From: a virus
Direction: 5' to 3' (one strand)
Length of the DNA: 64,000 bases
IMG/VR virus record: IMGVR_UViG_3300017527_000515
Span: 1-64,000 of that record
This document shows, piece by piece, positions 1 to 16,285 of the stretch. Below the pieces are notes generated by a model. The model saw only the letters and a program-made list of their open reading frames with translations, did no database searches and was not told the origin of the DNA. Position 1 is the stretch's first letter. Every line of letters starts with the position of its first letter. Made by a program: the position numbers and the translations under genes.

Positions 1-390
1 ATCTTCTTCTGTAGCTGTGTGTGGAAACCCTAAATATTTAGGGTATCTCAACATATCTTTCTTCATTTGATTGCCTGCGTGTTTACCCTGTACAGGTGCA
101 TGTATAACGGGTTCGGCATAATCATGCTGTATCTTATCTATTGTGCCTGGTACTACAGTACTATGAATAATAATATATTTTGGGCTGGCATAAGCATATA
201 TCTTTTTAATCTCTTCGCTAATGTTCAGGTTCCCTGGTATACAGACATGTAAAAAAGTACACGGTGCAGCTTCGTTGTCTGGGTAATTAATTGGGTCCAG
301 CGGTAACGTTTTGTACACACCATTAAATAGTTCATACAAAGGCTTTCCAATCTCTCCTGTACCCATACATATCACGTCATAACTTTCCAT
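1..390 (-). CDS. UDP-glucose/GDP-mannose dehydrogenase family protein, N-terminal part (runs off the left edge; not in the ORF track)
   Basis: Manual translation from ATG at 390 (SD AAGGAG upstream): MESYDVICMGTGEIGKPLYELF...IIIHSTVVPGT...HAPVQGKH. It has a Rossmann GxGxxG and the STVxPGT motif of nucleotide-sugar dehydrogenases, with no stop before position 1. Confidence 0.7.
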   Translation of the reverse strand, partial: MESYDVICMGTGEIGKPLYELFNGVYKTLPLDPINYPDNEAAPCTFLHVCIPGNLNISEEIKKIYAYASPKYIIIHSTVVPGTIDKIQHDYAEPVIHAPVQGKHAGNQMKKDMLRYPKYLGFPHTATEED

Positions 391-402
391 ATTAAATCTC
401 CT

Positions 403-1077
403 TTATTCCGGTATAAATTCATAGGTATCTGATGAGTTGAATCGTTTACCTATTTTATAATTAAAACTATTTAATAGATCTATGACTATTTTTTTATTAT
501 TTGGATCATCAATTTCAATGAACAGTATCGGGCGATGTTTACTTAAAAGATTAGAGGCGCCCCTCAAAGCCCTAACCTCATTGAATTCAACATCCATCTT
601 CATCAAAGATATATTTTCTAATTTTTGCTCGGTCACTATACTATCTATAGTTTTTACTGTAGTATCATCACCCTCTGTTAATTTATGCATTCCACGATTA
701 CTTCTACCACCAACAAAGAATTTCTCCATACTACCTGAACCATTAGCATCAGACACTGCTAAATTCAACGCGATAACTTTATTCTCAACAGAATTAAGAT
801 TTATATTCCCAACTAAATAATTATATGAAGAATTAACAGGCTCTATAGATACGACTTTATCTGTCTGACATACTTTAGCAAAAAATAAAGTGTGGTTGCC
901 GATGGCTGCGCCAACATCCATAAATGTGCCGCCCAAATCGTAATTGCTCTTTATATAATCTAACATTTTGCCTTCATAAAAACGCAAACGCTGCCAGTCT
1001 TTCTGTAAATGCTCGGTAGGCTCACTAATATTAAACTTTACAACCTGACCAGCCTTTTCTATATTAACTACTCTCAT
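403..1077 (-). CDS. FkbM-family SAM-dependent methyltransferase
   Basis: FMDVGAAIGNHT, SIEP, LMKMDVEFNE..ALRGA and P.LFIE are FkbM/Methyltransf_21 motifs. Confidence 0.9.
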   Translation of the reverse strand: MRVVNIEKAGQVVKFNISEPTEHLQKDWQRLRFYEGKMLDYIKSNYDLGGTFMDVGAAIGNHTLFFAKVCQTDKVVSIEPVNSSYNYLVGNINLNSVENKVIALNLAVSDANGSGSMEKFFVGGRSNRGMHKLTEGDDTTVKTIDSIVTEQKLENISLMKMDVEFNEVRALRGASNLLSKHRPILFIEIDDPNNKKIVIDLLNSFNYKIGKRFNSSDTYEFIPE

Positions 1078-1088
1078 AATTAATCTCC

Positions 1089-2165
1089 TTATATAATATT
1101 ATTCCCGTAAATTACTTTTTTCCCTTCCCTAAGCAACTGTTCTACTAAAGAGGCTATGCTCCAATAAGTCCACCAACGGCCTGACTTGGTGTAATTAGGC
1201 GAATAATTAAAATCCCCAGTGTTAATATATTTAAATAGAGTAGAATTCTCAAAATCCCCAACAATTTTTCTAAACACAATATCAGGGAATACTTTATTTG
1301 GATTGTGTCCTTTTCTAGGTAAATCAGCCAACTTAGAGTCCAACCTTTTCACTAGATTATATCTAAGATCATTTACAGCACGGTTTGGCTTAAAACTAAA
1401 AATTGTATCCACTAATTTGGGATATAAAAAAGGAGTTCTTCTATAGAAAGGGAGCGACGCATCAAGTCTAGCATTTCTTGTGTAATACCATTCCTTGAAG
1501 AATTGATCCACAGTACCTCTAGCCTCCAACAATTCATTCTGGTAACTCGAAACAAACATAACTAAATTTTCTTTTGGAATTTTATCTATAGATTGTAGAT
1601 AGTTAACGCAGTGATAAAATCTAAATACTGGATAATCTGACGGTCCATTTAAAGACTGCCACGCCGTTTTAAAATTATATGTTTGTGGGTCTTTGTGAAG
1701 ATCGTATATAAACAAATCCTGTTCGGCCCATCCCTTATAGAACATAATATCCTTGAACAGCCGGGCCTCATTTGGAAAACTAACAAAAAGTATACCCGCT
1801 GGCGCAGCAGTACTATATAATTTATCAATGAAATAAGAAGTAATTCTACTATCATAACCAGATGAATGGAAGATCAAATAAAACTTACCGGGGTCCCATA
1901 AATTACGTATTGACTCCTCTAAAACATCAAAATATAAATCATAATCAAAGGCTTTTACTCTGTTTATTTCCTTTATATAATCAGAAAACACTGTTCGATA
2001 ATCTAATATATCTATATCCTTAAAGGGGGTAGTTGTCTCAGGTTTGCCCTTAGCTACAAACTTAGGATCTATGACAACATCACCTGAAAGGACGTCTTTT
2101 ATATTGTTAGACACCAGTCCAGTTATATTATTTATATACTTCCTTTCGATAGAAAAATGTGACAT
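1089..2165 (-). CDS. Asparagine-synthetase-like (PP-loop ATP pyrophosphatase) domain protein without a glutaminase domain
   Basis: LEESIR...FHSSGYDSR resembles LSGGxDS; RRTPFLYPKLVD resembles RxPFLDxxLV; K..LR-like segment near the C-terminus. Confidence 0.55.
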   Translation of the reverse strand: MSHFSIERKYINNITGLVSNNIKDVLSGDVVIDPKFVAKGKPETTTPFKDIDILDYRTVFSDYIKEINRVKAFDYDLYFDVLEESIRNLWDPGKFYLIFHSSGYDSRITSYFIDKLYSTAAPAGILFVSFPNEARLFKDIMFYKGWAEQDLFIYDLHKDPQTYNFKTAWQSLNGPSDYPVFRFYHCVNYLQSIDKIPKENLVMFVSSYQNELLEARGTVDQFFKEWYYTRNARLDASLPFYRRTPFLYPKLVDTIFSFKPNRAVNDLRYNLVKRLDSKLADLPRKGHNPNKVFPDIVFRKIVGDFENSTLFKYINTGDFNYSPNYTKSGRWWTYWSIASLVEQLLREGKKVIYGNNII

Positions 2166-2175
2166 CTCATCTCCC

Positions 2176-2946
2176 CTAAATATACTTTAATTTATGTAGA
2201 ACTTCTATGGCTTCTGGCGCCAGATCTTTTTTCCAATTAGAAATCCATTTTTTATAATAGCCAATATGTGCAGTGTCTCTTTTTATCAGGTGATCTTCGG
2301 ATTTTCTCAAGGTGCCCTCACTTATCCCGGTAAATATGGACAATTTTTGCGCATTCAAATAAGGGCTTACAATAAAATCCTCAAATCTAATCTCTAAATA
2401 TTGATTGGTCTTTAATTTTTCTCTAATATCAAACCATATATTTAATTTCTCTGCCCAATGCAATGAGTTTTTATAGGCACTAGTAGTTGCCCACGGTCGA
2501 TGGTTCTTGCCGCCTTCACTATGCCTCAGACCAGAGGCAGTACTATCCCTACCATCTCTGTAAATATGTATTATCTTCACGTCCTCCTTTAATATACTTA
2601 CAATATCAAGAAGGTAATATCCAACCCCGCTTTTATCACCAAAAACTTCATATTTATCACCAAACAAAACCTTTTCAACCGAATAAAGTCCTTGAAGCAT
2701 ATTTTTACCTGTGGTATTAGTCTTACATCTACGTAGAAATTCCTGCGGAGTAACATGCATGGGTATTTTGTTACGTGGCCCTAATTTAGTAGATAGAAAT
2801 TTAAAATAATTATTTACATCTGTTTCAACAGTTAGTTGGTTGTAAATTCTCATTTCATTAGTTATATGTGAATTTGGAGGATGACTTAAAACATCTCTAA
2901 GTATAGTTGTGCCACTCCTAGATCTACCTGCTACTATCAGTCTCAT
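2176..2946 (-). CDS. Sulfotransferase (PAPS-dependent)
   Basis: 5'-PSB motif IVAGRSRSGTT, GDK, 3'-PB motif IHIYRDGRD, and IRFEDF. Confidence 0.85.
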   Translation of the reverse strand: MRLIVAGRSRSGTTILRDVLSHPPNSHITNEMRIYNQLTVETDVNNYFKFLSTKLGPRNKIPMHVTPQEFLRRCKTNTTGKNMLQGLYSVEKVLFGDKYEVFGDKSGVGYYLLDIVSILKEDVKIIHIYRDGRDSTASGLRHSEGGKNHRPWATTSAYKNSLHWAEKLNIWFDIREKLKTNQYLEIRFEDFIVSPYLNAQKLSIFTGISEGTLRKSEDHLIKRDTAHIGYYKKWISNWKKDLAPEAIEVLHKLKYI

Positions 2947-3863
2947 AGAACCTCCTCAAATATCTTTTTGTATACTTTATAACAAGCATGTTGGCTGTGG
3001 TATTTTAATGCCCACTTACGCATTTTTTTGCCATAAATTTCCCTATTCTTCTCATAAGAAAAAAATTCTAACATTTCTGGTATTTTTTCACCTCTTCTAC
3101 CTATGTCGTAAACAGGGTATTCGCCGCCTAACAAAACATGTTTTTTATCTTTATCCAATATACTACCAAAACAAGGTATTCCCATCATTCCCGCCTCTAT
3201 TAAAGTGTAACCATAAGCATAATAAATACCATGAGTAAATATATCACAACCAAAGATTCTATCCAAGATCGTAGGATAATCCTGGAACTCAGAAGCCATT
3301 ATACATCTAAAATTTTCTATTTTACTTTCGATGTATGACACCCCTTTAGCGTCTTTTTGCCGTAACCAGCCAGGAGCGGCCGCGGCCACTAACTCTGTAG
3401 TATTATAGTCGGTTTTAACTCTAAAAATATTTTCATCTACTGGCTGTAGCCCCAATTTTAAACCACTAATGGGGTAATTTATTGTAAGAGCTACATAAAA
3501 ATCTGCTAGTTGTCTTACCCTTTCAAACCACTCTGGATTTTTATAATAGACGCTGGAGTTTACTACCATACCTGTAGGTTTGTTTCTTTTAAATCCAATC
3601 TTTTTTAGAAAACTAAAGTCTAATTTACCTTTATAATTTACACATCCACTCTCACATATCATGTATATATCCGCCGCTTCTATTAAAGACATCGCTTTAT
3701 CTTTTTTTGTCCAAAAAGGGACGTCATACCGCGCAGTAAAACCCTCAGTAGTTCTTTCCTTGGTCATAATAACATTAGAAGTAATACCATATCTATTTAG
3801 CGCGTCAGATATATTATGCACCGCATTTGCGTAATCTTTGAAAGCTATAAAGACAACCCGCAT
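2943..3863 (-). CDS. Glycosyltransferase, GT-B fold (GT4-like)
   Basis: KGVSYI, CDIF, YGYTLIEAGMMGIPC and the C-terminal GKKMRKWALKYHS fit GT-B donor-binding domains. Confidence 0.7.
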   Translation of the reverse strand: MRVVFIAFKDYANAVHNISDALNRYGITSNVIMTKERTTEGFTARYDVPFWTKKDKAMSLIEAADIYMICESGCVNYKGKLDFSFLKKIGFKRNKPTGMVVNSSVYYKNPEWFERVRQLADFYVALTINYPISGLKLGLQPVDENIFRVKTDYNTTELVAAAAPGWLRQKDAKGVSYIESKIENFRCIMASEFQDYPTILDRIFGCDIFTHGIYYAYGYTLIEAGMMGIPCFGSILDKDKKHVLLGGEYPVYDIGRRGEKIPEMLEFFSYEKNREIYGKKMRKWALKYHSQHACYKVYKKIFEEVL

Positions 3864-4669
3864 TATTTAACCCCTTCCTTATGAGAACTTAAGTGTTGGC
3901 GACAATCCATTAGATTATCCAAAATATCTTTTGGTATATATCTAGATAAATCTACGTCGCACTTGGATCTAGGTGAGCGTATATTATTAAACCAAGATTT
4001 TTGAGCATGGGATATGTTGTTTAAACCTTTTATATTTAATCCTCGTTTCCAACTATCAGTTTTATCAAAATATATTTGTATTGGCTTTCCTAATGCTTTC
4101 TTATAAGACTCACGAACCATTGCATCGCAGCCTTTTTCTTTATTAGTAAAATATTGAGTAGCTTTTTTTAGAACAGGTGTTCTAAAAGCTCTAGCCGTAC
4201 TATCATCTTTTCGTCTTTGCTTTGTCGCCCAAACATCATAAACTAAGGTGCGGCCATCCTTTATGTTATAGAAAATAGTTTTTGGTATAGAAAACCAATC
4301 TTTGTCCTTGTTGTTCTTTAAAACATGATATGCCGAGCTTAAAAGTCTTGGCGGGGCGTAATAATCATCTGGATTCCAAATAGCCACCTCGGTATCTGAA
4401 AACAAACTAACTAGTTTCTTTAATTTTTTACCTAAAGGAATCCAGCCAACAAGCGGAACGTAATTAAAACTAACACAACCTACTGAATTTAATCTAGGTA
4501 AATATCTTTCTATTTCTTCTCTGCCCATAACCTCTGTGTTATTCTGCTCTTCAATTACAACAAGTTCCCATTCAAAATCTATATGCTCTTGTCTACATAG
4601 TGATTCTAACGCTGCCCAGCCTATATACTTAGATCTAAAAAATGGTAAACCTACCGATAGTTTAATCAT
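3863..4669 (-). CDS. Glycosyltransferase, GT-A fold (GT2-like)
   Basis: LSVGLPFF..ALESLCRQ..WELVVI, LGKK, PDDYY.P.RL. Start set at the ATG with an AGGAG SD. Confidence 0.75.
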   Translation of the reverse strand: MIKLSVGLPFFRSKYIGWAALESLCRQEHIDFEWELVVIEEQNNTEVMGREEIERYLPRLNSVGCVSFNYVPLVGWIPLGKKLKKLVSLFSDTEVAIWNPDDYYAPPRLLSSAYHVLKNNKDKDWFSIPKTIFYNIKDGRTLVYDVWATKQRRKDDSTARAFRTPVLKKATQYFTNKEKGCDAMVRESYKKALGKPIQIYFDKTDSWKRGLNIKGLNNISHAQKSWFNNIRSPRSKCDVDLSRYIPKDILDNLMDCRQHLSSHKEGVK

Positions 4670-5117
4670 CACGTTCTCCTATTTTAACAGCCGGGTTTCC
4701 GGCCCAAATCTCATATGGCGGTACATTCTTAGTAAGAACTGAGCCAGTACCTACTACAGCACCATCACCTATGTTACTAACAGTAACTATAATCGAATTC
4801 ATACCTATAAATACATCTTGACCTATAATTAAATCTATTGCTTCTATACGCTGTATATCTTTCCTTCTTCCTCTTGAGTGGCGCCAGTAATGTTTATGGG
4901 TAAACACCTTAGTGTCATCAGATATCTCACTGTATTTACCAATCTTTATATTACCTGTAAGATCAAACCAACAACCTCTACCTATGTGTAAAGGTTTTTC
5001 TAGAATTATTCTACCGACACCTATGTCTACATGTTGAGCTCTAATCTTGTAGGTCGGGCTACCCATAGATTCATTATGTTTAATCGCTTTTATATTCTCT
5101 AATGTTTGTTTATCCAT
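4662..5117 (-). CDS. Hexapeptide-repeat (LbH) sugar O-acetyltransferase
   Basis: IGKYSEI..VFTHKH, IGQDVFIG, IGDGAVVGTGSVLTKNVPPYEIWAGNPA. Confidence 0.9.
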   Translation of the reverse strand: MDKQTLENIKAIKHNESMGSPTYKIRAQHVDIGVGRIILEKPLHIGRGCWFDLTGNIKIGKYSEISDDTKVFTHKHYWRHSRGRRKDIQRIEAIDLIIGQDVFIGMNSIIVTVSNIGDGAVVGTGSVLTKNVPPYEIWAGNPAVKIGERDD

Positions 5118-5123
5118 AATAGT

Positions 5124-5756
5124 TTAATCTGGCCAGATGTTTTTCCCCCTCTCTTTTCTTCTCAGATGTTCTAAATCATCATAAAAAGCACGCTTTTTCT
5201 CCGGGTCTTTTCCTAATTTTTCCATCCAATAAAATCTAAAATGGTGTTTGATTAAATCTTCTTCAGTTCTAAAACCTTTATAGCCCTGAATAGCAGCGTG
5301 GTAATACTTTTTAGTATGTATCCTTGGATAACCATTGCTTTTACAGACTCTTGGCGGAGTTTTTCTTACCGCTATGGGCTCACCAGTCATTTCAAGATTA
5401 TCCCACTCTAAACGAACAAGACCTAAACACTCAATGCCTGCCAAGTCCGCCTTCTCCACCTTATTTCTTAGGAGAGGGCCTGATTTAGAATCAAATATCT
5501 CGTCGCCGCCCAGAAGTATGTGCCAATCGGATACTTCTTTCATCCACGCTAAGGAAGTGTTCCTGAGTTTACCAAAATTAGCAAAAGCAAATTTTCTAAT
5601 CTCACAGCCGTAGTCTTTACATATTTCCTCTGTTCTATCAGTTGTTAAATCATCTATTAATATATAACCAGCGTCTACAAAAGGCATTATACTTTTAAGC
5701 ATAAACTCTATACAATGCTCTTCGTTTTTAACAAAAGAAACCATAGATAGTCTCAT
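5124..5756 (-). CDS. Glycosyltransferase family 2
   Basis: VKNEEHCI, IDDLTTDRTEEI, FGKLRN, DWHILLGGDE. Confidence 0.8.
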   Translation of the reverse strand: MRLSMVSFVKNEEHCIEFMLKSIMPFVDAGYILIDDLTTDRTEEICKDYGCEIRKFAFANFGKLRNTSLAWMKEVSDWHILLGGDEIFDSKSGPLLRNKVEKADLAGIECLGLVRLEWDNLEMTGEPIAVRKTPPRVCKSNGYPRIHTKKYYHAAIQGYKGFRTEEDLIKHHFRFYWMEKLGKDPEKKRAFYDDLEHLRRKERGKNIWPD

Positions 5757-6481
5757 AGTATAACTCCTTTTTTGTAGAGTATATTAGGATATTTTATTTT
5801 TCTAAAATAATTATTATCCTTAGTCTTTTGGAAGCCGGGCTTCTTCACATAATCTTCAGTCATATAGTGCCCTGGCCCGTTGCGTCTATCAAACTCTGGT
5901 TGGTGGCCTCTAATGCCTATACGGTGCATGTGGTGAATAAGATATTTAGTATTAGTCACGTCTGATCTATCATACATTCTCTTACCACCATAACATAAAA
6001 AATTATGAGCGTTGTTAGTTTCCCACTGCATACCTGCCACATTCCTAAAGATCCTGACCTCTCCACCGTTAGCTGGCTGATGTATAGGTTTATGGTGATC
6101 TAAACTGTATATATAATTTATTCTATAGAATCCATAACCTAATATACTTGGGTGCTCGTTCAGCCAGTCATGCAGATTCTCCCACACATCATCGTCTAAA
6201 AGCTCGTCGCAGCCCAAACATAAAATCCAATCACCATACGCTACGTCCTGTATTATATTACGCCGGTCTCCCTCGTTCCAACCAACACCACCGCGCTCCA
6301 CAGTAGGTTGTGGTATAGTATAATATCTTACCTTGTCATACTTGCTTAGTATAGATATAGTATTATCAGTACTACCACCATCTAGACATACAATCTCATC
6401 TACATGATCATACATATGCTCTATACAGAGGTCAATCCATCTATCTTCATTCAATGTTAATAAACACGCTGATAATCTCAT
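5753..6481 (-). CDS. Glycosyltransferase family 2
   Basis: LTLNEDRWI, VDEIVCLDGGSTDNT, GDWILCLGCDE. Start moved to ATG 6481, which forms an ATGA overlap with the upstream stop. Confidence 0.85.
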   Translation of the reverse strand: MRLSACLLTLNEDRWIDLCIEHMYDHVDEIVCLDGGSTDNTISILSKYDKVRYYTIPQPTVERGGVGWNEGDRRNIIQDVAYGDWILCLGCDELLDDDVWENLHDWLNEHPSILGYGFYRINYIYSLDHHKPIHQPANGGEVRIFRNVAGMQWETNNAHNFLCYGGKRMYDRSDVTNTKYLIHHMHRIGIRGHQPEFDRRNGPGHYMTEDYVKKPGFQKTKDNNYFRKIKYPNILYKKGVIL

Positions 6482-6924
6482 TCTATATCTCTCGCTCCCT
6501 TTCTGGCAGGATTGCCGTACCACAATTCATTAGCAGGGACATCTTTAGTTACAACTGACCCTGCCCCTATCATAGCGTTGCTGCCGACAGTAATCCCCGG
6601 ACAAATAGTAGTATTAGCACCTATACTAACACCATCCTCAATCTTTGTTTTATATGTTTCCCACTGTCCCTCTGTTCTTGGGTACATATCATTAGTAAAA
6701 CATACATGTGGGCCTATAAATACATTGTTGCCTATTTCTATACCTTCAGGTATAAATGCGAAAGCTTGTATCTTACATCCATCACCGATAACTACAGTCT
6801 TCCTGATCTCTACCATTGCACCTATGTTACAGTAATCACCTATAGTACATCCATAGATATTAGATGTTTCCGGGTGCCAGATACCGGTAAAATCCCCTAT
6901 AATTACATCATCTTTTATAGCCAT
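6478..6924 (-). CDS. Hexapeptide-repeat N-acetyltransferase (WbpD/WlbB/FdtC-like)
   Basis: NIYGCTIGDYCNIG, CKIQAFAFIPEGIEIGNNVFIGPHVCFTNDMYP, GAGSVVTKDVP..YGNPA. Start moved to MAIKDD. Confidence 0.9.
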   Translation of the reverse strand: MAIKDDVIIGDFTGIWHPETSNIYGCTIGDYCNIGAMVEIRKTVVIGDGCKIQAFAFIPEGIEIGNNVFIGPHVCFTNDMYPRTEGQWETYKTKIEDGVSIGANTTICPGITVGSNAMIGAGSVVTKDVPANELWYGNPARKGARDIE

Positions 6925-7552
6925 ATTTCTCCATCGCTTCTCCGGCCTTTTGCCAGAAATACTTCTCATCTTCCTTAGTAAAATGATTTTTCCAGTCGCC
7001 TTTTATGCCCCTTCGTGGGGCATGACCCACAAGCTTATTAACGGTGTGTATTTCACTATTCTTAGTCGGCGCGCCTAATTCCGATGAGCATCGGGTAATT
7101 TGCGCCTGCTGGCCGTCTTTTAGATCCTCAAATTTAATTGTAGGTAGTTGACCACACCAACTATCAATGTAATTTGCCCAGTACCCTATAGGATCTGTAT
7201 ACATCTCAGGTTCTGGTTTGTGTCGTTTATAGTCCTGCTGGCCGCCATTATACATCCAGTCCGATGGCGGTATCTGAATCCTTCCATAGATAAAATCTTG
7301 GAAACTTCTGTTCATAAAATAAGGACCAGTACCTCTCTGTAACTTCCACCAATAGTACGAAGATACCATAACATCCCTACCATCTCTGATCATAAATACA
7401 GAAGACGTCTCTTTGATTAGCGCTGCTATGTGATCGTCGAAGGGCCAGTGGACATTTGTCACCTTACCGTCAAAATTTAATCGAAAACATTCTTTCAGGA
7501 AATTATTACCAGACCTTCTATGTCCCCATATTTTAAACTTTCTTACAGACAT
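6908..7552 (-). CDS. Sulfotransferase (Sulfotransfer_1-type)
   Basis: GHRRSGNNF, MIRDGRDVMVSSY, KFEDLK and the C-terminal RRGIKGDWKNHF (RKGxxGDWKNxF signature). Confidence 0.9.
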   Translation of the reverse strand: MSVRKFKIWGHRRSGNNFLKECFRLNFDGKVTNVHWPFDDHIAALIKETSSVFMIRDGRDVMVSSYYWWKLQRGTGPYFMNRSFQDFIYGRIQIPPSDWMYNGGQQDYKRHKPEPEMYTDPIGYWANYIDSWCGQLPTIKFEDLKDGQQAQITRCSSELGAPTKNSEIHTVNKLVGHAPRRGIKGDWKNHFTKEDEKYFWQKAGEAMEKYGYKR

Positions 7553-8535
7553 ACCCACTCCCCCGTCTCCAAAGACCTCAGAGCAGCATCTAGAACCTTA
7601 ACTACTTCTATACCGTTAACTCCGTCGGTCAACGGTACTTCTTTCTTATTGACACACTCTATGAAATGCTCACACTCTCTCTGTAGTGGTTCCCATACCT
7701 CAGTATATGGTGAGTAGACATCTCCATGTCTATAGGCCAACATGTAAGCACCGTGGTCGCTAGTATCTCTAACATCCACACCTTTATTATATATCTTAAT
7801 CTTTTCTTCAGCCAACATATTATATACTAACATCTTCTTTGTGCCGACCACAGTAGTTACTCGTTTCTTTCTGGGGTCTAACCAACTAAGATGTAGATCA
7901 CACACAGGACCTTTCTCATATTCCAAAGTAAGTTTAGCGACCTCAACCACACCCTTGTCTATAAATCCATAACCATTAGCGTGTACTCGAGAGACTTTAT
8001 CTCCTAATAAATAGTTAAATATAGATATATCATGAGGCGCCAGATCAGAGACCACGTTGGCCTTCTGAAATTTACCCAAGTTTAAGCGGGATGCATGTAT
8101 ATACACCACCTCACCTAACTCACCGCTGTCTATGATTTCTTTAATCTTAAGTACTTCTGGCACATACATAAATATATGACCGACCATAACAATTTTTCTC
8201 AGTGTTTTGGCACGATCTAATATCTCCTCAGCCTCTGCTACATCCACAGTCATGGGTTTCTCTATAAAAACATTCTTCTGGGCCATTAAAGAAGCCATAG
8301 CAATGTCATGGTGTGATGATGGAGGGGTTGCTATGAATATACTATCTATGTCGTTACGTCCTAATGCTCTTCGCCAGTCATTATTAAAGTATACCCCCTT
8401 ATATGTGGGGTCATCTCTAAACTTCTTGGTCTGTTCATAATCTATATCGAAAGCGGCGGCCAATACACCTAGCTTATTCAAAACTCTAAGTAGATTGGGG
8501 CCCCAATATCCTAAACCAACTAAAGCTGCTTTCAT
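7543..8535 (-). CDS. Gfo/Idh/MocA NAD-dependent oxidoreductase (WbpB/WlbA-like sugar 3-dehydrogenase)
   Basis: VGLGYWGPN, IATPPSSH, VFIEKPM, MVGH, DLAPHDISI, SWLDPRK. Confidence 0.9.
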   Translation of the reverse strand: MKAALVGLGYWGPNLLRVLNKLGVLAAAFDIDYEQTKKFRDDPTYKGVYFNNDWRRALGRNDIDSIFIATPPSSHHDIAMASLMAQKNVFIEKPMTVDVAEAEEILDRAKTLRKIVMVGHIFMYVPEVLKIKEIIDSGELGEVVYIHASRLNLGKFQKANVVSDLAPHDISIFNYLLGDKVSRVHANGYGFIDKGVVEVAKLTLEYEKGPVCDLHLSWLDPRKKRVTTVVGTKKMLVYNMLAEEKIKIYNKGVDVRDTSDHGAYMLAYRHGDVYSPYTEVWEPLQRECEHFIECVNKKEVPLTDGVNGIEVVKVLDAALRSLETGEWVCL

Positions 8536-8543
8536 AAAGCCTC

Positions 8544-9416
8544 CTAATCATCAAACCCGAATTCCATACCCACTTTGTTTGGATTCGCTTTGAAATTATA
8601 CTTCTCATCTGTCTCTGGATTAAATTGTATGAGCCTATTCCGGGACGCGAACCATTTGTATATCGGGTCCGGGTGAGTCCCCTCAAACTTATCCAAATTC
8701 TTCATATATTTTAGTAATTGGTAGTTAAATGGGACATCTACATCAAGTTTTCCATCGAAATATTCCTTGTCGTCCTCATACCAACTCCTAAATTTCTTCA
8801 ATTTTATACCCGCTACGCGTGCGTCTCTGATCCAACCATAGTGATAGATCGGCGTATCCTTCGGCAGCCAAACAGCATCCTTGCCCCTGTAACCATGACA
8901 AGCACTGCCCTTAAAACATACATCAGACACACAACCATTAGGGGAATTCCGTATACGGAAATCCATACTCTTTCTGCCCATGCGAGCGTGCCTATGATAC
9001 CATGTAGGATTAGGATTAGTGTAGCACGGTAAGCCGTAAAAATGAAGTACTTCGAAGTTGATTAGGTTGATGCGGGGGTGAGCACAGATCTCTTTAATCT
9101 GGTCTGCGTCATCCTCGTGGAATAAATCATCAGCATCCTGAATAACTATCCAATCACCAAGTGCCTTATCTATAGCAAAGTTTCTTTCTCGCTCCTGCCA
9201 TCCCCTATCATGCTTCCATTCACGTCTATATATACGTACAACGTCCTTACCAAACTCGTCTTGTAGCATCTTTAGGGTGTCGTATGTATCATCGAACGAC
9301 ATCCCCTCATTAACCACAACTTCATCGGCGAATTTTAAAGAACTTCTTATCGCTGCCTCAATACAATAGTCTAGATAATTACAGTTATATGCAACCATCG
9401 TAACAGAAATAGCCAT
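8544..9416 (-). CDS. Glycosyltransferase family 2
   Basis: ADEVVVNEGMSFDDT, RNFAI..GDWIVIQDADD (DxD), IYHYGW. Confidence 0.85.
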   Translation of the reverse strand: MAISVTMVAYNCNYLDYCIEAAIRSSLKFADEVVVNEGMSFDDTYDTLKMLQDEFGKDVVRIYRREWKHDRGWQERERNFAIDKALGDWIVIQDADDLFHEDDADQIKEICAHPRINLINFEVLHFYGLPCYTNPNPTWYHRHARMGRKSMDFRIRNSPNGCVSDVCFKGSACHGYRGKDAVWLPKDTPIYHYGWIRDARVAGIKLKKFRSWYEDDKEYFDGKLDVDVPFNYQLLKYMKNLDKFEGTHPDPIYKWFASRNRLIQFNPETDEKYNFKANPNKVGMEFGFDD

Positions 9417-9428
9417 TGTTTCTGCTCC

Positions 9429-10550
9429 TTATATCTTTTTAATTTCCTTTACAATACGATCGCCTATGTGATCCCACGTAAGGTTCTCCTTGATGTATTT
9501 TCTCAACAATCTACCACGCTTGGAGGCCTCATCCTGCTTATTATAACACTGACGCATAAGCTGAGCGCCGTGAAGCACATCAGGCTCGGCCCACAGCTGA
9601 TCGCCGCGGTACCAAGGGCTCCAAGGCATACCAAACACCGGAGTAAGCACATACTGTACCAGATAACTGTTGTTATCCTTAGCGTACTCTCTCGCTCCTC
9701 CATAGCCTGTTACTATGATAGGATTACCACATGCACCTGCTGTAAACGGACTTAAACCAAAGCCCTCTCCTCTGTCCAGGGACACATAACAGTCACCCCG
9801 TGCATGTAAACCACTCATCTCCGACTCACTTAACATATTCGGTAGAAGATAAATAGGAGGATAATAATCCATAGGAGTGACCATCTTAAGACGTTTAATA
9901 GTGGTCCGAATGGCTTCCTTTTCGGCGTCCGCATAGGAACTTCTGTATGTTTTAAGTACCAGAGCCACATTGTCTTCCTCCTTGAACTCATGCCAATAGG
10001 CTTTAATCAACGCTAGAGGATGTTTTCTCTCTGTCCATTGGAAGATGTCGTAGAACATATACGCATCGTCCGGCACCCCAGCTACAGGGAATGGTTTAAT
10101 GTCTTTGAAATCATCTAAATTTATACCGTGCGGTACCACCCCGATGGGCTTCTCCACACCACACAATTTAAATGTTTCTTTGTTCCAATGACACCCCACA
10201 AGCACCTTATTAACCCCACCTATATTCATATAGTCAGGCCAGTCTGGGTGTAACTTACTAGTTTCCCAGATGGTGTAGCCAACATTAGTCTTTTCGTGCT
10301 CCACATGTTTACTCCAGAACTCAGGAGTCAGGTGAATAAACACTATATTGTAGTCGATTTGTTTGTTGACCAGGCTTTCTAAAATAGCTCCGTCTTCACC
10401 TAGATCGGGGCGGGCTTGTTCGAAGGATACGGGACTTAAAGTCAGGGGAATCCCCAGCTTATGTAAAGCTAAGATATTCCCCCTCGATGCTTTAGCGTAT
10501 CCTGAGTTGTCAAAGGTAGGTGATATATATTTTATACCTTTTATTTCCAT
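9429..10550 (-). CDS. Glycosyltransferase family 4
   Basis: SGYAKASR, GYTIWET, VVPHGI, ERKHP, GDCYVSLDRGEGFGL...G.PIIVTGYGG. Confidence 0.9.
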   Translation of the reverse strand: MEIKGIKYISPTFDNSGYAKASRGNILALHKLGIPLTLSPVSFEQARPDLGEDGAILESLVNKQIDYNIVFIHLTPEFWSKHVEHEKTNVGYTIWETSKLHPDWPDYMNIGGVNKVLVGCHWNKETFKLCGVEKPIGVVPHGINLDDFKDIKPFPVAGVPDDAYMFYDIFQWTERKHPLALIKAYWHEFKEEDNVALVLKTYRSSYADAEKEAIRTTIKRLKMVTPMDYYPPIYLLPNMLSESEMSGLHARGDCYVSLDRGEGFGLSPFTAGACGNPIIVTGYGGAREYAKDNNSYLVQYVLTPVFGMPWSPWYRGDQLWAEPDVLHGAQLMRQCYNKQDEASKRGRLLRKYIKENLTWDHIGDRIVKEIKKI

Positions 10551-11119
10551 GGCTCTTCGCCTCCATACCTTTTCGTTAGAAGTTCAGGATGTTCTAACTG
10601 ATTTAATACTTCTTCTATGAAATAATGCCACTCATGTAGCACATGTTTCTTTCTCTGGGCTATCATATTGGCCAGTACTTTGTAGTTTGTACAAACCATT
10701 CGCTTCTGGAGATAACCTTCCGGCAAGTTAGCCTTGATTTGGTTGAACCAGATCTTCTTATTGTCTCCGCCCTTGTTGTACCGATCTATTAACATATTTA
10801 CATGATCGATAGTCTCAATAGGAACTGGGTGTGCAAAGTCCTCTCGGCTCAACGGTTTCTTAGCTATAGTGTGGATGGTAGATTCTGATTGTTTTGTGGT
10901 ACCAACGCGGTAGGTATCAAACTCCTGCCACCAGTAGCGGGCAGCATTGATTTCAATCCAGACCTGGATGGACTCTAAAAACTTATTGTGTCCTCCGTCT
11001 TTATCACAAAGCTTAAAAGCTACGCCTTTTAGGCGCTCAAAATCTGTAATCCCGAAGCTATATCCGATACCCTCGACTGCGGCATCGTAGCCACTTTCGT
11101 TCTTAATAATTACTTCCAT
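10541..11119 (-). CDS. Divergent ThyX-like (flavin-dependent thymidylate synthase fold) protein
   Basis: GHNKFLE, AARYWWQEFDTYRVG..KQSESTIH, LPEG, NYKVLANM..QRKKH.L.EW match the ThyX layout. The canonical RHR is replaced by TYR. Confidence 0.65.
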   Translation of the reverse strand: MEVIIKNESGYDAAVEGIGYSFGITDFERLKGVAFKLCDKDGGHNKFLESIQVWIEINAARYWWQEFDTYRVGTTKQSESTIHTIAKKPLSREDFAHPVPIETIDHVNMLIDRYNKGGDNKKIWFNQIKANLPEGYLQKRMVCTNYKVLANMIAQRKKHVLHEWHYFIEEVLNQLEHPELLTKRYGGEEPWK

Positions 11120-11152
11120 TCTCTCACCTCTACCTAATATAAAGTTAGATAA

Positions 11153-12493
11153 TTAGAACTGTTCTGACTCAATTTCTTGCTTGACGACCTCTGCTACCTC
11201 GTCGTCGGGAGCGTTCATCTCTTCCTGAAACTGCTCGTACATCTTATCGAAAATCTTTATCCAACGATCAACGATGGGACCACCAGAACCCCATGCTAAC
11301 TCAGTGGTTACCCACTCATAAGCACGTTCTGCTCTGGCCATAGCCTCTTCGTAGTCGGCATGAATGTCCAACATCTTCTCTACCATGTCCTCTACATCCA
11401 CCAGTGGGCGGATAACCTCATTGTCATGGGGTAGGATGGTAAGCAGACTTGGGTTGCTGCCACTGTTCACAAGGTACCCCTTGTCTTCGTCGATAGCTTC
11501 AATAAGAGCTGTGTTTCTCGGCATGATAACCGGTGTCTTAGTAGCCATAGCCTCAGACCATGACAACCCCCAGCCCTCACCAAGAGTAGTACTGATGACA
11601 ACATCAACACAGTTGTACAGCATGTTGACTATCTGACGTGGATAGCCCTGATTAGGACCGAAATTCTGCGGAAAGATGACATCTTCTGATGTGCTTAACC
11701 CATAAGAGTTAAGAACCTCAGGTAAATCCCAACCTTGATCCTTCTGTGCCATATGTAGGTACAGTAGGGATTCAGGAACTTCTTTACGGAACTCTACGAA
11801 CGCCTGAATTGTGCGCGGAATGTCTTTTCTCTGCTGATTTCTATTCAAATTCATAAAGATGAACTTCTCGGCATGTTTACCGAAGTATCTCTGTCTGAAT
11901 TCCTCTACCTGCTCTTTAGGTAGTGGGAAATAGTCCTGCACATTGACACCGTGAGGAATAATATCCAGCTCAGGCACGTCAGGGTACACCTTCTTTGCCA
12001 TATCAGCGCCAAACTGTGAGTAAGCTACTGGGTAGTCTACTGCACTGATGTTCTTAATCCATTGTTCCTTAGGCTCACCATCAATCGGAAAGTAGCAGAT
12101 TGATTTAAACTTTTTGCCCTGATTCTCCAAGAACGGGATCAGTTCCGGCAGAAAGTCCATAATAAAGGTGTCCTGTAGGAAGAACAGGATGTCGTATTCC
12201 ATCTGTGGAATCATACTACAGATCTTTTTACGGCCATAAGGGTCCTTCTGAGCATTGGTACCGGTGGGCCAGATTCTGTATGGAAACTGATGGGGGTCTC
12301 CCCAGTAGTTAATTCCCAGAACATCAACCTGGTACCTACCAGTAGCCTGTAAACCCTCGAAAATGTTTCGGCTGACTGTACCAAAACCAGTAGCACAGGT
12401 GGGGCTATCACAATATGCCAGCACCTTAATCTTGGGTAGATCTACATTCCAAGATTTCTTCTGAGTCTTTTTCTTTTTACCACGTTTTGCCAT
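11153..12493 (-). CDS. Glycosyltransferase family 4
   Basis: DSPTCATGFG, IIPHGV, NRNQQRKD, TTLGEGWGLSWSEAMATKTPVI. Confidence 0.9.
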   Translation of the reverse strand: MAKRGKKKKTQKKSWNVDLPKIKVLAYCDSPTCATGFGTVSRNIFEGLQATGRYQVDVLGINYWGDPHQFPYRIWPTGTNAQKDPYGRKKICSMIPQMEYDILFFLQDTFIMDFLPELIPFLENQGKKFKSICYFPIDGEPKEQWIKNISAVDYPVAYSQFGADMAKKVYPDVPELDIIPHGVNVQDYFPLPKEQVEEFRQRYFGKHAEKFIFMNLNRNQQRKDIPRTIQAFVEFRKEVPESLLYLHMAQKDQGWDLPEVLNSYGLSTSEDVIFPQNFGPNQGYPRQIVNMLYNCVDVVISTTLGEGWGLSWSEAMATKTPVIMPRNTALIEAIDEDKGYLVNSGSNPSLLTILPHDNEVIRPLVDVEDMVEKMLDIHADYEEAMARAERAYEWVTTELAWGSGGPIVDRWIKIFDKMYEQFQEEMNAPDDEVAEVVKQEIESEQF

Positions 12494-13659
12494 TACTTAG
12501 TCTCCTTTCCCTTACGGACCTTTTTGGTCGCCAAAAAGGGTGTTGTGAAATTGACCTGAGCAGACTGGAGGATTAGATCTCTCGCTGCTGGGTTCTCATT
12601 AGCGTAATCCTCGACAGCTTTCTTGTTTAGATTCATCATCTTCACCAATCTGTCGTGTGGAATCACTTTTGATACTATATCAAGGTCATACATTGTTCGT
12701 GAATTCTGTCTGATATAAACTTCTTTGTCTCCCCATGTGGGGTTAGAGTCTTCGCGCTTGATCTTTTCCATGAGTATCATAGAAAGCTCTCTATCACGCT
12801 CTTCGAGTATCTTTTTGATGCTTTTTACGTCCTGCCACTCCTGTACAAGCTCTTCTTCTGGGAGGGTAGTGGCTGACTGAAACTTATAGTCAGACCGCTT
12901 ACATGCCTTCTCGTATGTAGGACAATACTCCTTATAATCACACCACGGACAGAACATATTCAGCTGTGCCCTGGCATCTTTCTTAGTGAAAGAGTTCATT
13001 TGGTCATACAATTCCTTAAGATAGTGCTCGAAAGCCTCTCTTTCCTCTGGAGTACGATAGGTGTACAGCATTTCAGACTTTAATAGGTCCAAGCTCAAGA
13101 TAATTCGCTTGTATTGGGGCCATTTATAGCTTGCCACAAGGTCATAAATTGCTAACTGGTTGTCTACCTTCATCTGATCTGCGGTAGGAGCTGTCTTAGA
13201 GGTCTTATAGTCCACGATGAGTAAGGTTTCGTCATCTACCTCTACTACCTTATCTATGGCGCCTATCAACGGGACACCATCGGCCGTAGTCACATCCTCT
13301 GCTCCCCTAAAGCCAAACTCTATCTCCAAGCCCATGATCTTACCCAAGTCAAAGCTATTAACTCGTTTGTTTATGAGTTTCTTTCCCTCAGTGTGAATGA
13401 TCATGTCCTGAATGCCCTCTCTAATAGAGACCTCTTCGTACTTATCAAGTATCTTTTTCTTGTCGGCTTTAGTAAATTTCTCTTTCTTCATCCAGATATT
13501 ACCAGCGAGTTCTAACGCCTCATGAACTGCTGTACCAAGACGAAAAGCAGGACTGGCTACCTTAGGCATATGTTCTACATAATTACACCAGTACTTGTAC
13601 TTGCACTCTAAGAACGAACTAATTCTTGTTGCGCTTATTTTAATTTCTTTCTTCGCCAT
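12493..13659 (-). CDS. PD-(D/E)XK exonuclease, RecB/AddB/Cas4-like, with four-Cys (Fe-S) staple
   Basis: ISATRISSFLEC, GTAVH, GAIDKV, IVDYKT, QLAIY, CPWCDYKEYC. Confidence 0.85.
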   Translation of the reverse strand: MAKKEIKISATRISSFLECKYKYWCNYVEHMPKVASPAFRLGTAVHEALELAGNIWMKKEKFTKADKKKILDKYEEVSIREGIQDMIIHTEGKKLINKRVNSFDLGKIMGLEIEFGFRGAEDVTTADGVPLIGAIDKVVEVDDETLLIVDYKTSKTAPTADQMKVDNQLAIYDLVASYKWPQYKRIILSLDLLKSEMLYTYRTPEEREAFEHYLKELYDQMNSFTKKDARAQLNMFCPWCDYKEYCPTYEKACKRSDYKFQSATTLPEEELVQEWQDVKSIKKILEERDRELSMILMEKIKREDSNPTWGDKEVYIRQNSRTMYDLDIVSKVIPHDRLVKMMNLNKKAVEDYANENPAARDLILQSAQVNFTTPFLATKKVRKGKETK

Positions 13660-14032
13660 CACATATCTCCTTCAATGCTAGTTCGTATAATTCAAAAAAG
13701 TCTTCTACCTTCATTGCTGCATAGGTGTCAGATCTATTTCGTTTGAAGAACACTATGGGTTTGCCACCGTGCTCCTCAGCCTGTGCCAGAGCCTTCCAGA
13801 TGTTCAGGGCCTCTTGATTTTTACACTCAATACCGTGAAATATGAACAACTCTTTAGCTTTGCCACGCAGAATCACATCCCTACCGTTTTGGCCCATCGG
13901 TCTCGGTTCAATATCGCCGTCTTTCTCCACCGGGGTATTGGTGATTTTGGATATGAGCTCTGCAATTTGCTTTTGTAGCCGTCTACCCTTGGCTTTACGA
14001 GCAGCTACACTTATTGGTTTCTTTTTTGCCAT
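13640..14032 (-). CDS. Holliday junction resolvase-like PD-(D/E)XK nuclease
   Basis: KAKGRRLQ, PMGQNGRDV, IECKNQE.LNIW.A..QA, P.VFFKRNR, a common phage resolvase pattern. Confidence 0.75.
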   Translation of the reverse strand: MAKKKPISVAARKAKGRRLQKQIAELISKITNTPVEKDGDIEPRPMGQNGRDVILRGKAKELFIFHGIECKNQEALNIWKALAQAEEHGGKPIVFFKRNRSDTYAAMKVEDFFELYELALKEICDGEERN

Positions 14033-15531: not shown

Positions 15532-15541
15532 GTTGCTCTCC

Positions 15542-15961
15542 TTACTTAGTCGCCGTAGATTTTGCTCTCTCTGGCGGTAACATTTCAATTATCTGCCCTA
15601 TGATATGCACTTCATCGTCGTCGATTAGCAGTGCAATAGGGGCAAACAGCTGATTTGACTCCAAATCAGGGTACTTGTTGACTGCGAATAAAATCTTGGT
15701 GATTGCAGGTAGATACATCACTGCGTTGTCCTCATCATACACCATGAAGTCGCCGTCCTCTTCTGTGAAGAATTCTGGTGCTATCTCATGGTAGTTGCCC
15801 TTACGAGGGATTACGATCTCGTGCTCGTTTTTAGCCACCCTAAAGTGGAAATTGCGGGCTGGAAACATAACCATCGTAGGTGTTCCAAGTTGAGCATCAC
15901 CGACCACCCATTCATTCAGATCAGCTGGCGCTTCTTTAACTGTTTTCTTTCTCTTAGCCAT
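15542..15961 (-). CDS. Hypothetical protein
   Basis: 139-aa ORF with a GGAGGAG SD, tiling the operon; no motif recognised. Confidence 0.7.
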   Translation of the reverse strand: MAKRKKTVKEAPADLNEWVVGDAQLGTPTMVMFPARNFHFRVAKNEHEIVIPRKGNYHEIAPEFFTEEDGDFMVYDEDNAVMYLPAITKILFAVNKYPDLESNQLFAPIALLIDDDEVHIIGQIIEMLPPERAKSTATK

Positions 15962-15963
15962 AA

Positions 15964-16281
15964 TTACTCCTCCACTATAATAAAGTTATCGATGACAACG
16001 TTCGTCCAGTAAACCTTAGAGTACCCACTACAGTGGCGGCACTTACCATCATAGGATCTCTCCTCTATGTGGCCGTGTACTTTAATAAACGTGTCCTTTG
16101 GTAGTTCTGCAATTGCCTCGGCTGTGCTGCCCCAAGCAGCCACCTTGACGTACTGATGCTTACCAGTACCTGTAGGTACAGCTATCTTAGCATTAAGCAG
16201 ACTACTATTATTCATACCCACAGTTTTAAGATTTGGGTAGTGAACTTTTCCTGTTAAAACTACAAAATTTTCGCCAATCAT
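15964..16281 (-). CDS. ssb: Single-stranded DNA-binding protein (OB fold)
   Basis: NFVVLTGKV, YVKVAAWG.TAE, KDTFIKVHGHIEERSY...TNVVID follow the SSB pattern. Start moved to MIGENF. Confidence 0.8.
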   Translation of the reverse strand: MIGENFVVLTGKVHYPNLKTVGMNNSSLLNAKIAVPTGTGKHQYVKVAAWGSTAEAIAELPKDTFIKVHGHIEERSYDGKCRHCSGYSKVYWTNVVIDNFIIVEE

Positions 16282-16285
16282 TTTA

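Follow-up and report, generated by a model that had tools for sequence, protein, structure and literature searches.

A conserved glycosyltransferase pair and a hypervariable, sulfotransferase-bearing island predicted to form a soluble glycan-assembly pathway in a lineage of large phages

Multi-glycosyltransferase clusters in large aquatic phages, glycosylation of virions and glycosylation of phage DNA are all already known. Chloroviruses and mimiviruses synthesize their own nucleoside diphosphate (NDP)-sugars and use glycosyltransferases (GTs), methyltransferases and acetyltransferases of their own, independently of a host export route, and chloroviruses glycosylate their own capsid with their own enzymes. 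In this work we describe a glycan gene island located at positions 1-12493 of a 64,000-nt stretch of DNA (the window), which corresponds to bases 1-64000 of a 115,457-bp phage contig from IMG/VR (record IMGVR_UViG_3300017527_000515; CheckV completeness 40%). The island is a phage-encoded glycan-assembly pathway, all enzymes of which are predicted to be soluble, and it is built around two GT-B enzymes of 446 and 373 aa (the core GTs). The chlorovirus and mimivirus machinery consists of the same enzyme types, but these are viruses of eukaryotes.

Among phages, the jumbo cyanomyoviruses P-SSM2, S-SCSM1 and S-SCSM2R likewise carry many paralogous GTs together with NDP-sugar enzymes that vary between close relatives (PMC12801897, PMC7824862), and for these lipopolysaccharide (LPS)- or cell wall-like GT clusters Iyer et al. 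2021 used the term "capsular polysaccharide modification systems" (PMC7824862, PMC12801897). The locus described here differs from these clusters in its universal two-GT core beside a nuclease gene and a thymidylate-synthase (TS) slot, in the inteins found in its GTs, in its sulfotransferases, and in the absence of a membrane or export component; S-SCSM2R, unlike this lineage, is reported to carry pgaA. In mycobacteriophages of clusters F and O, tandem phage-encoded GTs and an O-methyltransferase are reported to act in the cytoplasm and to glycosylate the capsid and tail tube (Freeman et al. 2023, as cited in PMC11600133 and PMC12619734); as that work is cited, these operons differ in being small (2-4 genes) and in that no sulfation is reported. 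The phage DNA-glycosylation clusters (T4 α- and β-GT, the arabinosyl-5-hydroxycytosine (5hoC) systems of RB69 and DLP3, and the 5mYOX-linked GTs of Pyle et al.) share with this locus a GT4-like GT-B, a TS homologue and a HAD phosphatase set among genes of nucleotide metabolism (PMC13326640; 10.1101/2023.12.21.572611), but here the N177D and D169N signatures are absent, no adjacent deoxynucleoside monophosphate kinase was seen, and a search without positive control found no TET; the glycans known from phage DNA comprise no more than three sugars and carry no sulfate. The Wbp/Wlb/Gnn-type pathways for 2,3-diacetamido-2,3-dideoxy sugars share a 3-dehydrogenase-like GFO oxidoreductase and an LbH N-acetyltransferase with the island, as well as a DegT aminotransferase in two relatives (G001 and the phage immuto, below), whereas the window, which begins at the contig end, has no aminotransferase and its NCBIfam scores are all below the equivalog cut-offs.

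The same gene order occurs in a cultured phage, the 160-kb myovirus vB_FspM_immuto of Flavobacterium (Bacteroidota), as PD-(D/E)XK nuclease, GT, GT, GT2, DegT/WecE aminotransferase, methyltransferase and a further GT. Its GTs match profiles of the 446-aa (E 9e-16) and 373-aa (E 2e-20) core GTs reciprocally, at only ~25% identity. It differs in that no sulfotransferase is annotated in the stretch shown, there is no TS slot, and its published analysis concerns DNA bases only.

The island comprises 16 minus-strand open reading frames (ORFs), all co-directional and tightly packed, with neighbouring ORFs overlapping by 1-62 nt or separated by gaps of 6-33 nt. A PD-(D/E)XK nuclease, DnaJ, primase, DnaB, UvsX-like recombinase and clamp adjoin it upstream. 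An earlier examination made from the letters of the DNA (the sequence-only reading) had described a glycan cluster with mostly overlapping or abutting stops and starts, contiguous with replication genes, and the ORF coordinates and this adjoining block bear it out; a bacterial chromosomal context, which it had named as counting against it, is not the case, the context being viral. The sequencing runs that contain the stretch come from marine sediment and seawater, and the phage is present in two metagenomes. Because window position 1 is the contig end, the left flank of the island itself is missing and was read from relatives; HAD, clamp loader, PolA, ribonucleotide reductase (RNR) and DegT genes were not found on the 115,457-bp contig.

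Relatives were collected through the nuclease (15) and through the 446-aa GT (118 IMG/VR contigs), with contigs of up to 298 kb, and 80 loci of the 118 were kept (relatives are referred to below by G and L numbers). The order nuclease, 446-aa GT-B, slot, 373-aa GT-B is constant in relatives (~100 related contigs), and the nuclease precedes the GT pair in nearly all of them. After the second GT-B the gene content differs from phage to phage, forming a hypervariable island: in G001 it consists of methyltransferases, three GT2, a GFO oxidoreductase, an LbH protein, a sulfotransferase and a DegT aminotransferase, and in G002 of a UDP-N-acetylglucosamine (UDP-GlcNAc) 2-epimerase, a DXD GT, a GT2, a Caps_synth-like protein, a methyltransferase and a sulfotransferase. 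The far boundary of the island is a KdsC/Cof-type HAD phosphatase gene, followed by clamp loader, PolA, RNR, NT5C, RNase HII and Dam, so that in G001 and G002 the island is nested inside the replication and nucleotide block. L010 has no island, the order there being GT, GT, HAD. Sulfotransferase-like genes occur in at least seven other lineage members, and the GFO oxidoreductase gene is present in 16 of the 80 loci. In the window, GC content falls to 34-36% over positions 1-6000 against ~41% elsewhere on the contig, and no relatives of the distal genes (FkbM methyltransferase, Asn-synthase-like protein and third GT-B) turned up in IMG/VR, JGI metagenomes or the 80 loci; the low GC content and the lack of relatives suggest that the first ~6 kb of the island is a recent acquisition. 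The host of the lineage is probably a member of Bacteroidota. It may coincide with, or be closely related to, the published "moraphages", which are jumbo phages of Bacteroidota that carry DnaJ and four groups of core GTs (PMC12619734).

The 446-aa GT-B is the most conserved gene of the block (63-84% identity in the first 15 relatives, against 47-83% for DnaB; 50-84% in the 118 IMG/VR contigs and at least 50% in the 80 loci), and the 373-aa GT-B is 54-80% identical in relatives. In its AF2 (AlphaFold2) model the 446-aa protein has as its top PDB match the GT of chlorovirus NY2A (3oy2, E 1e-18), to which it is only 18% identical; further structural neighbours are BshA, MshA, sucrose-phosphate synthase (SPS), trehalose-6-phosphate synthase, GlgM and the methylmannose-polysaccharide GT. 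The 446-aa enzyme has a pI of 4.9, and both core GTs are mostly acidic, which is a poor fit to a membrane or DNA surface, net charge being weak evidence. Its profile also matches proteins (E 3e-20 to 2e-61) encoded between portal, capsid and neck genes in the cultured siphophages S-CBS4, Mae-JY09 and phiPsal1. The pattern recurs in two distant phages, Streptomyces phage Faust (L107) and Rhodothermus phage RM378 (L190), where a GT-B pair or a single GT-B has RNR, PolA and a hydrolase as neighbours and a ThyX in the vicinity; the association of core-type GTs with nucleotide-metabolism genes is old.

Inteins were found in the 373-aa GT-B of L008 and L016 and in the 446-aa GT-B of L008 and L010. 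Among the relatives, in-frame inteins thus interrupt each of the core GTs and also ThyX genes, both ThyX-like and canonical (L008:12249-15254, L008:16989-20270, L016:12545-16063, L010:8964-11399, L008:15263-16855 and L138:8310-9530); all carry Intein_splicing/Hint and LAGLIDADG domains except L008:15263-16855 (LAGLIDADG only) and L138 (Intein_splicing only). We know of no inteins reported in glycosyltransferases. An intein with LAGLIDADG also occurs in PolA of G001 (L017:16408-19620), and none in PolA of G002.

No product of 1-12493 has a 19-residue window at or above a Kyte-Doolittle value of 1.6, and membrane helices are absent from the islands of four phages, where the only hydrophobic 19-mers are marginal ones that belong to a pair of soluble G001 enzymes. 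Five families of priming and export proteins (Bac_transf, Glycos_transf_4, Polysacc_synt (Wzx), Wzy_C and ABC2_membrane) gave no match over cut-off in seven lineage records (G000, G001 and G006-G010), three of which are complete genomes of 269-298 kb; in 14 control genomes, each export or priming family was matched in 10-14 (priming families in 10-12). A Gtr-type module (GtrA flippase, GtrB bactoprenol GT and GtrC membrane GT) is likewise absent, there being no membrane protein in the island and no Gtr family among its Pfam matches. Of the components of an O-antigen or capsule locus, NDP-sugar synthesis, serial GTs and tailoring enzymes are present, and a priming GT and a flippase, polymerase or exporter are missing. 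The sequence-only reading, which had noted no flippase, Wzy, Wzz, ABC exporter, priming GT or membrane protein in the window, agrees with the lack of any hydrophobic 19-mer there, and the export genes that it had allowed might lie just beyond the left edge are absent both from the corresponding flank of relatives (HAD, clamp loader, PolA, RNR) and from the seven records.

The genes of the island are listed in Table 1. Pfam names 12 of the 16 ORFs, including one sub-threshold Thy1 match, and the other four were named through ESM Atlas, hhalign or a homologue. Five of the GTs are supported by Pfam, one by ESM Atlas, and one weakly; by fold there are three GT-B, three firm GT-A and one doubtful GT-A. 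The two sulfotransferases, two LbH acetyltransferases, FkbM methyltransferase and oxidoreductase that had been recognized in the sequence-only reading were all confirmed by Pfam, and its Asn-synthetase-like and nucleotide-sugar dehydrogenase-like proteins by ESM Atlas and by an L003 homologue, respectively. Its count of seven GTs (four GT-A and three GT-B) stands for the three GT-B and three of the GT-A, the fourth GT-A being doubtful, and its gene list, essentially right, had omitted the ThyX-fold gene.

Table 1. Predicted genes of the glycan island and its conserved upstream flank (window coordinates).
Feature	Coordinates	Strand	Basis
NDP-sugar-dehydrogenase-like protein, N-terminal 130 aa, truncated by contig end	1..390	-	GxGxxG, residues 10-15
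FkbM-family S-adenosylmethionine (SAM) methyltransferase	403..1077	-	Pfam Methyltransf_21 E 9e-18; weak V. cholerae RfbT match
Asn-synthase-domain protein without glutaminase domain	1089..2165	-	ESM Atlas
PAPS (3'-phosphoadenosine 5'-phosphosulfate)-type sulfotransferase	2176..2946	-	Pfam Sulfotransfer_3 E 4e-16, Sulfotransfer_1 E 2e-10
Third GT-B glycosyltransferase, GT1-family-like	2943..3863	-	ESM Atlas
Possible GT-A glycosyltransferase (doubtful)	3863..4672	-	Weak N-terminal hhalign match
LbH (hexapeptide) O-acetyltransferase-like protein	4662..5117	-	Pfam Hexapep; NCBIfam WcaF/WbbJ/Vat-type, below cut-off
Small GT2 glycosyltransferase	5124..5756	-	Pfam Glycos_transf_2 E 4e-5
GT2 glycosyltransferase	5753..6523	-	Pfam Glycos_transf_2 E 4e-14
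LbH N-acetyltransferase, NeuD/PglB/VioB type, 163 aa	6478..6969	-	Pfam Hexapep E 1.5e-25
Second, short sulfotransferase	6908..7558	-	Pfam Sulfotransfer_1 E 2e-8
GFO/IDH/MocA oxidoreductase, UDP-GlcNAc-3-dehydrogenase-like	7543..8535	-	Pfam, three domains
GT2 glycosyltransferase	8544..9416	-	Pfam Glycos_transf_2 E 2e-12
Core GT-B no. 2, 373 aa, GT4-like	9429..10550	-	Pfam Glycos_transf_1
Divergent ThyX-fold protein in thymidylate-synthase slot	10541..11119	-	AF2 model, Foldseek
Core GT-B no. 1, 446 aa, GT4-like, acidic	11153..12493	-	Pfam Glycos_transf_1, GT4-conflict
PD-(D/E)XK (Cas4/RecB-like) nuclease, conserved upstream flank	12493..13662	-	Pfam PDDEXK_1 E 1.5e-27

The truncated dehydrogenase-like protein has a full-length homologue at L003:12319-13116 (49% identity) with a UDPG_MGDP_dh central domain (E 8e-10). 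The Asn-synthase-like protein has no Pfam, NCBIfam or PDB sequence match; against Asn_synthase clusters in ESM Atlas it scores 0.96 by features and a template-modelling (TM) score of 0.67-0.79 by structure, with a degenerate PP-loop (SSGYDS), and it is a candidate amidotransferase for a uronic acid. The third GT-B, for which there was no Pfam match and the PDB sequence search was empty, resembles GT family 1 clusters in ESM Atlas (features 0.97-0.98, TM 0.8) and has a C-terminal E-x7-G-x-P-like motif. The doubtful GT-A, again without Pfam or PDB match, aligns over 45 N-terminal residues with a profile of the island GT2 proteins (hhalign E 0.04, a weak match). Homologues of the small GT2 (35-41% identity) adjoin the GFO gene in L005, L006, L012 and L016. 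The 163-aa LbH protein matches NCBIfam NeuD_NnaD (E 1e-26) and the GFO oxidoreductase has UDP-GlcNAc 3-dehydrogenase as its best NCBIfam match (E 3e-49), both below cut-off. The FkbM enzyme is probably for glycan O-methylation. The ThyX-fold protein is probably not part of the glycan pathway, and the nuclease is not part of it.

From this gene content we infer the following sugar chemistry. The core consists of the two GT4-type GT-B enzymes kept by every member of the lineage, whose phages are marine jumbo phages. The UDP-GlcNAc-3-dehydrogenase-like GFO oxidoreductase and the NeuD/PglB-type N-acetyltransferase might produce a 2,3-diacetamido sugar, with the required aminotransferase expected beyond the contig end (DegT is present in G001 and immuto), and the NDP-sugar dehydrogenase-like protein and the Asn-synthase-like amidotransferase might produce a uronamide. 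Three or four GT-A and one further GT-B would extend the chain, which could then be capped by sulfate (two sulfotransferases, needing host PAPS), O-methyl (FkbM) and O-acetyl (second LbH) groups. Since no priming, flipping, polymerising or exporting protein is encoded, assembly of the glycan would take place in the cytoplasm, on an acceptor of the phage's own, which would most likely be a conserved virion protein (capsid, tail or fibre), giving each phage its own type of surface glycan. L010:13078-15693, directly after GT-GT-HAD, encodes an 871-aa DUF2341 + LamG protein; the same domain pair is found in the 2378-aa fibre of the window, so that a fibre-like gene adjoins the glycan core in L010.

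As the acceptor we tentatively favour a phage or virion protein, judging from gene content. The combination of a core that is conserved and a periphery that varies would be expected if the acceptor is a conserved component of the phage, and phage-encoded soluble GTs with tailoring enzymes, the makeup of a virion-glycosylation system, are present. The viral (chlorovirus) GT that is the best structural match of the modelled core enzyme, and the homologues among the portal, capsid and neck genes of S-CBS4, Mae-JY09 and phiPsal1, would also count toward a virion protein, as would the capsid and tail-tube glycosylation reported for mycobacteriophage operons. It is possible, if rather doubtful, that the virions bear a strain-specific sulfated glycan coat (a viral "serotype") that might mimic the marine algal polysaccharides bound by Bacteroidota. 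Several points weigh against a virion acceptor. The module lies among replication and nucleotide genes and not among structural genes; no signature of a protein O- or N-glycosyltransferase was found in it; matches to the GT4 fold are generic; and other homologues of the core GT lie beside primase (S-EIVl), PolA and RNR (RM378), RNR and ThyX (Streptomyces phages) or NDP-sugar genes (TJE1). The absence of membrane proteins is compatible with a host-envelope glycan, as a lipid carrier primed by the host and the exporter of the host might serve the phage, the contig breaks off before the left end of the island, and similar jumbo-cyanophage clusters were read as host-surface modification (PMC7824862, PMC12801897). 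The conclusion of the sequence-only reading that this is no normal export locus stands; the cytoplasmic acceptor that it proposed (virion proteins or DNA) is a deduction, and DNA has become unlikely in that role.

A doubtful alternative, the most probable of the others, is remodelling of the host envelope, in which lipid-linked intermediates of the host (undecaprenyl diphosphate- or lipid A-core-linked) would be modified by the soluble enzymes on the cytoplasmic side of the inner membrane, and the host flippase or ABC transporter and ligase would export an altered O-antigen or capsule, so blocking superinfection or keeping progeny from sticking to debris. Ordinary non-priming O-antigen GTs likewise have no membrane helices, and the gene content resembles that of O-antigen and capsular polysaccharide loci: a diacetamido-sugar 3-dehydrogenase and N-acetyltransferase, an FkbM/RfbT-like methyltransferase, WcaF/WbbJ-like acetyltransferases and, in G002, the UDP-GlcNAc 2-epimerase and Caps_synth-like protein. 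The position beside early replication genes would suit early action, and the reading published for jumbo-cyanophage GT clusters is of this kind. However, genes for a priming GT, Wzx, Wzy and ABC exporters are all missing from the three complete genomes, so that such a pathway would depend wholly on host specificity, and the core GTs keep 50-84% identity in a lineage diverse enough to show 47-83% identity in DnaB, which would require one invariant host acceptor. Many membrane-associated GT-B enzymes use basic patches, whereas the core GTs are acidic, and no lysogeny genes were seen in the window, without a systematic search.

It is unlikely that the product is instead another soluble compound, either a cytoplasmic oligosaccharide started by a GT4 and a HAD phosphatase on a small phosphorylated acceptor (the models being sucrose-phosphate, trehalose-phosphate, glucosylglycerate and mycobacterial methylated polysaccharide) or a glycosylated host protein, the product staying in the cell or being packaged. 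In its favour, small acceptors are the substrates of the closest structural neighbours of the core GT, some enzymes similar to it work together with a HAD phosphatase, a KdsC/Cof-type HAD phosphatase gene is conserved at the far end of the module, and methyl- and acetyltransferases are abundant; but there is no phage precedent and no obvious benefit, the GT4 fold matches are generic, and sister phages vary in a way that resembles the arms-race diversification expected for an exposed structure.

A further reading, DNA hypermodification, is raised by the gene that separates the core GTs: its TS-type product would make a hydroxylated or hydroxymethylated pyrimidine, to which the GT-B pair would add sugar, and the island would extend the DNA-linked glycan, on the model of arabinosyl-5hoC in RB69 and DLP3. 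The GT4 - TS homologue - GT4 ... HAD phosphatase layout resembles the validated DLP3 and RB69 clusters, whose DNA GTs also match BshA, MshA and SPS structurally (PMC13326640), and the module lies among replication genes. In the window, the intervening protein has the ThyX fold (AF2 pLDDT, the predicted local distance difference test, 94; Foldseek top matches all ThyX with TM 0.6-0.72, e.g., 3n3y with E 7e-9 and TM 0.71). Pfam Thy1 scores 18.3 bits against a cut-off of 24.8, and no PDB ThyX was found by sequence with the family profile. The ThyX motif RHR-x7-S is absent; T-Y-R takes the place of RHR, a point in favour of the DNA reading, and the motif reads T-Y-R...S-x-S-T across 32 family members. 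The family, with 2136 protein clusters and 322 IMG/VR contigs, has lost the Arg90-type position. In three relatives the slot holds divergent ThyA-like genes of ~40-47 bits (L005:11825-12481, L006:13563-14360 and L013:12537-13223), which have Asp at the position of E. coli Leu143 and keep N177 and D169. Asp at the Leu143-type position has been linked to hydroxymethylation (PMC13326640), and these genes, which favour the DNA reading, have the features expected of a dUMP hydroxymethylase, so that 5-hydroxymethyluracil may occur in some members of the lineage.

The contents of the slot across the lineage argue against this reading. It holds a canonical ThyX (208-222 bits) in L129, L132 and L143, an intein-bearing canonical ThyX in L138, and a canonical ThyA with dihydrofolate reductase (DHFR) and Nudix in L186; by content it is ThyA-like in ~12 loci, ThyX-like in ~11 and empty in ~30, and L147 and L148, otherwise matching phages, differ by an in-place ThyA-like/ThyX-like swap. 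In the complete genomes G006 and G007 nothing fills the slot, a canonical ThyA (362-405 bits) is encoded elsewhere, and the GT pair is still present. Every genome would thus possess a single thymidylate synthase, whatever its type, and the GT pair persists with all of them, in agreement with the TS/ThyX anticorrelation reported for jumbo phages (PMC7824862). An enzyme making a hydroxylated or hydroxymethylated pyrimidine was found neither in the window, which has only the ThyX-fold protein, nor in G006 and G007, which have only canonical ThyA, and Tet_JBP was not found in a search without positive control. In 74 of 80 other viral loci (an IMG/VR sample) the ThyX-like family has no GT neighbour and lies beside RNR, NrdD/G, dUTPase, dCTP deaminase or PolA. 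Phage immuto, which shares the module, was reported by liquid chromatography with UV detection and tandem mass spectrometry (LC-UV-MS/MS) to have dA, dC, dT and fdPreQ1 replacing dG in its virion DNA, with no mention of a glycosylated nucleoside (bioRxiv 10.1101/2023.04.13.536721). The core GTs are acidic, and the packaging of DNA would be hampered by a sulfated glycan made by seven GTs. Glycosylation of DNA by way of the ThyX-like gene between the core GTs was rejected as the leading explanation, and we regard it as very unlikely, because the slot accepts any type of thymidylate synthase, including canonical ThyX or ThyA with DHFR, or is empty in genomes that keep a canonical ThyA elsewhere. 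Least probable of all is a complex sulfated, methylated and acetylated oligosaccharide attached to phage DNA through an acceptor chemistry that needs no TS homologue or TET, which if true would greatly exceed in complexity the mono-, di- and trisaccharides so far described on the bases of phage DNA.

A Pfam "Mom" match in G001 was also considered as a sign of DNA modification and rejected, as the corresponding genes occur in one to three copies at shifting positions beside conserved genes, a pattern like that of mobile endonucleases. These multi-copy ORFs, with Zn-ribbon/CapR N-termini and Mom-like or restriction endonuclease-like C-termini, lie at shifting positions beside the nuclease, primase and core GTs (L017:4723-6135; L005:5776-6702 and 8670-10271; L006:11154-12221 and 15535-16449; three copies in L008), and are probably mobile homing-endonuclease-like genes. 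An ORF of 8081 aa lies outside the window, at 79535-103780 of G000.

Compared with the systems described previously, what is new in this lineage is an invariant, intein-invaded GT-B pair flanking a thymidylate-synthase slot, together with a hypervariable island nested before the HAD phosphatase, recurrent sulfotransferases, and the absence of export genes from complete genomes. The targets of the abundant sugar-transfer genes in large aquatic phages are a general puzzle, for which the lineage is a clean test case, with its invariant two-enzyme core, its hypervariable sulfotransferase-bearing island, its lack of export genes, and a cultured Flavobacterium phage that carries the module. If a virion protein is the target, no bacteriophage before this one would have been known to wear a coat of sulfated glycoprotein, and the island would provide a marker for marine phage "serotypes", with consequences for the adsorption, grazing and stickiness of marine viruses.

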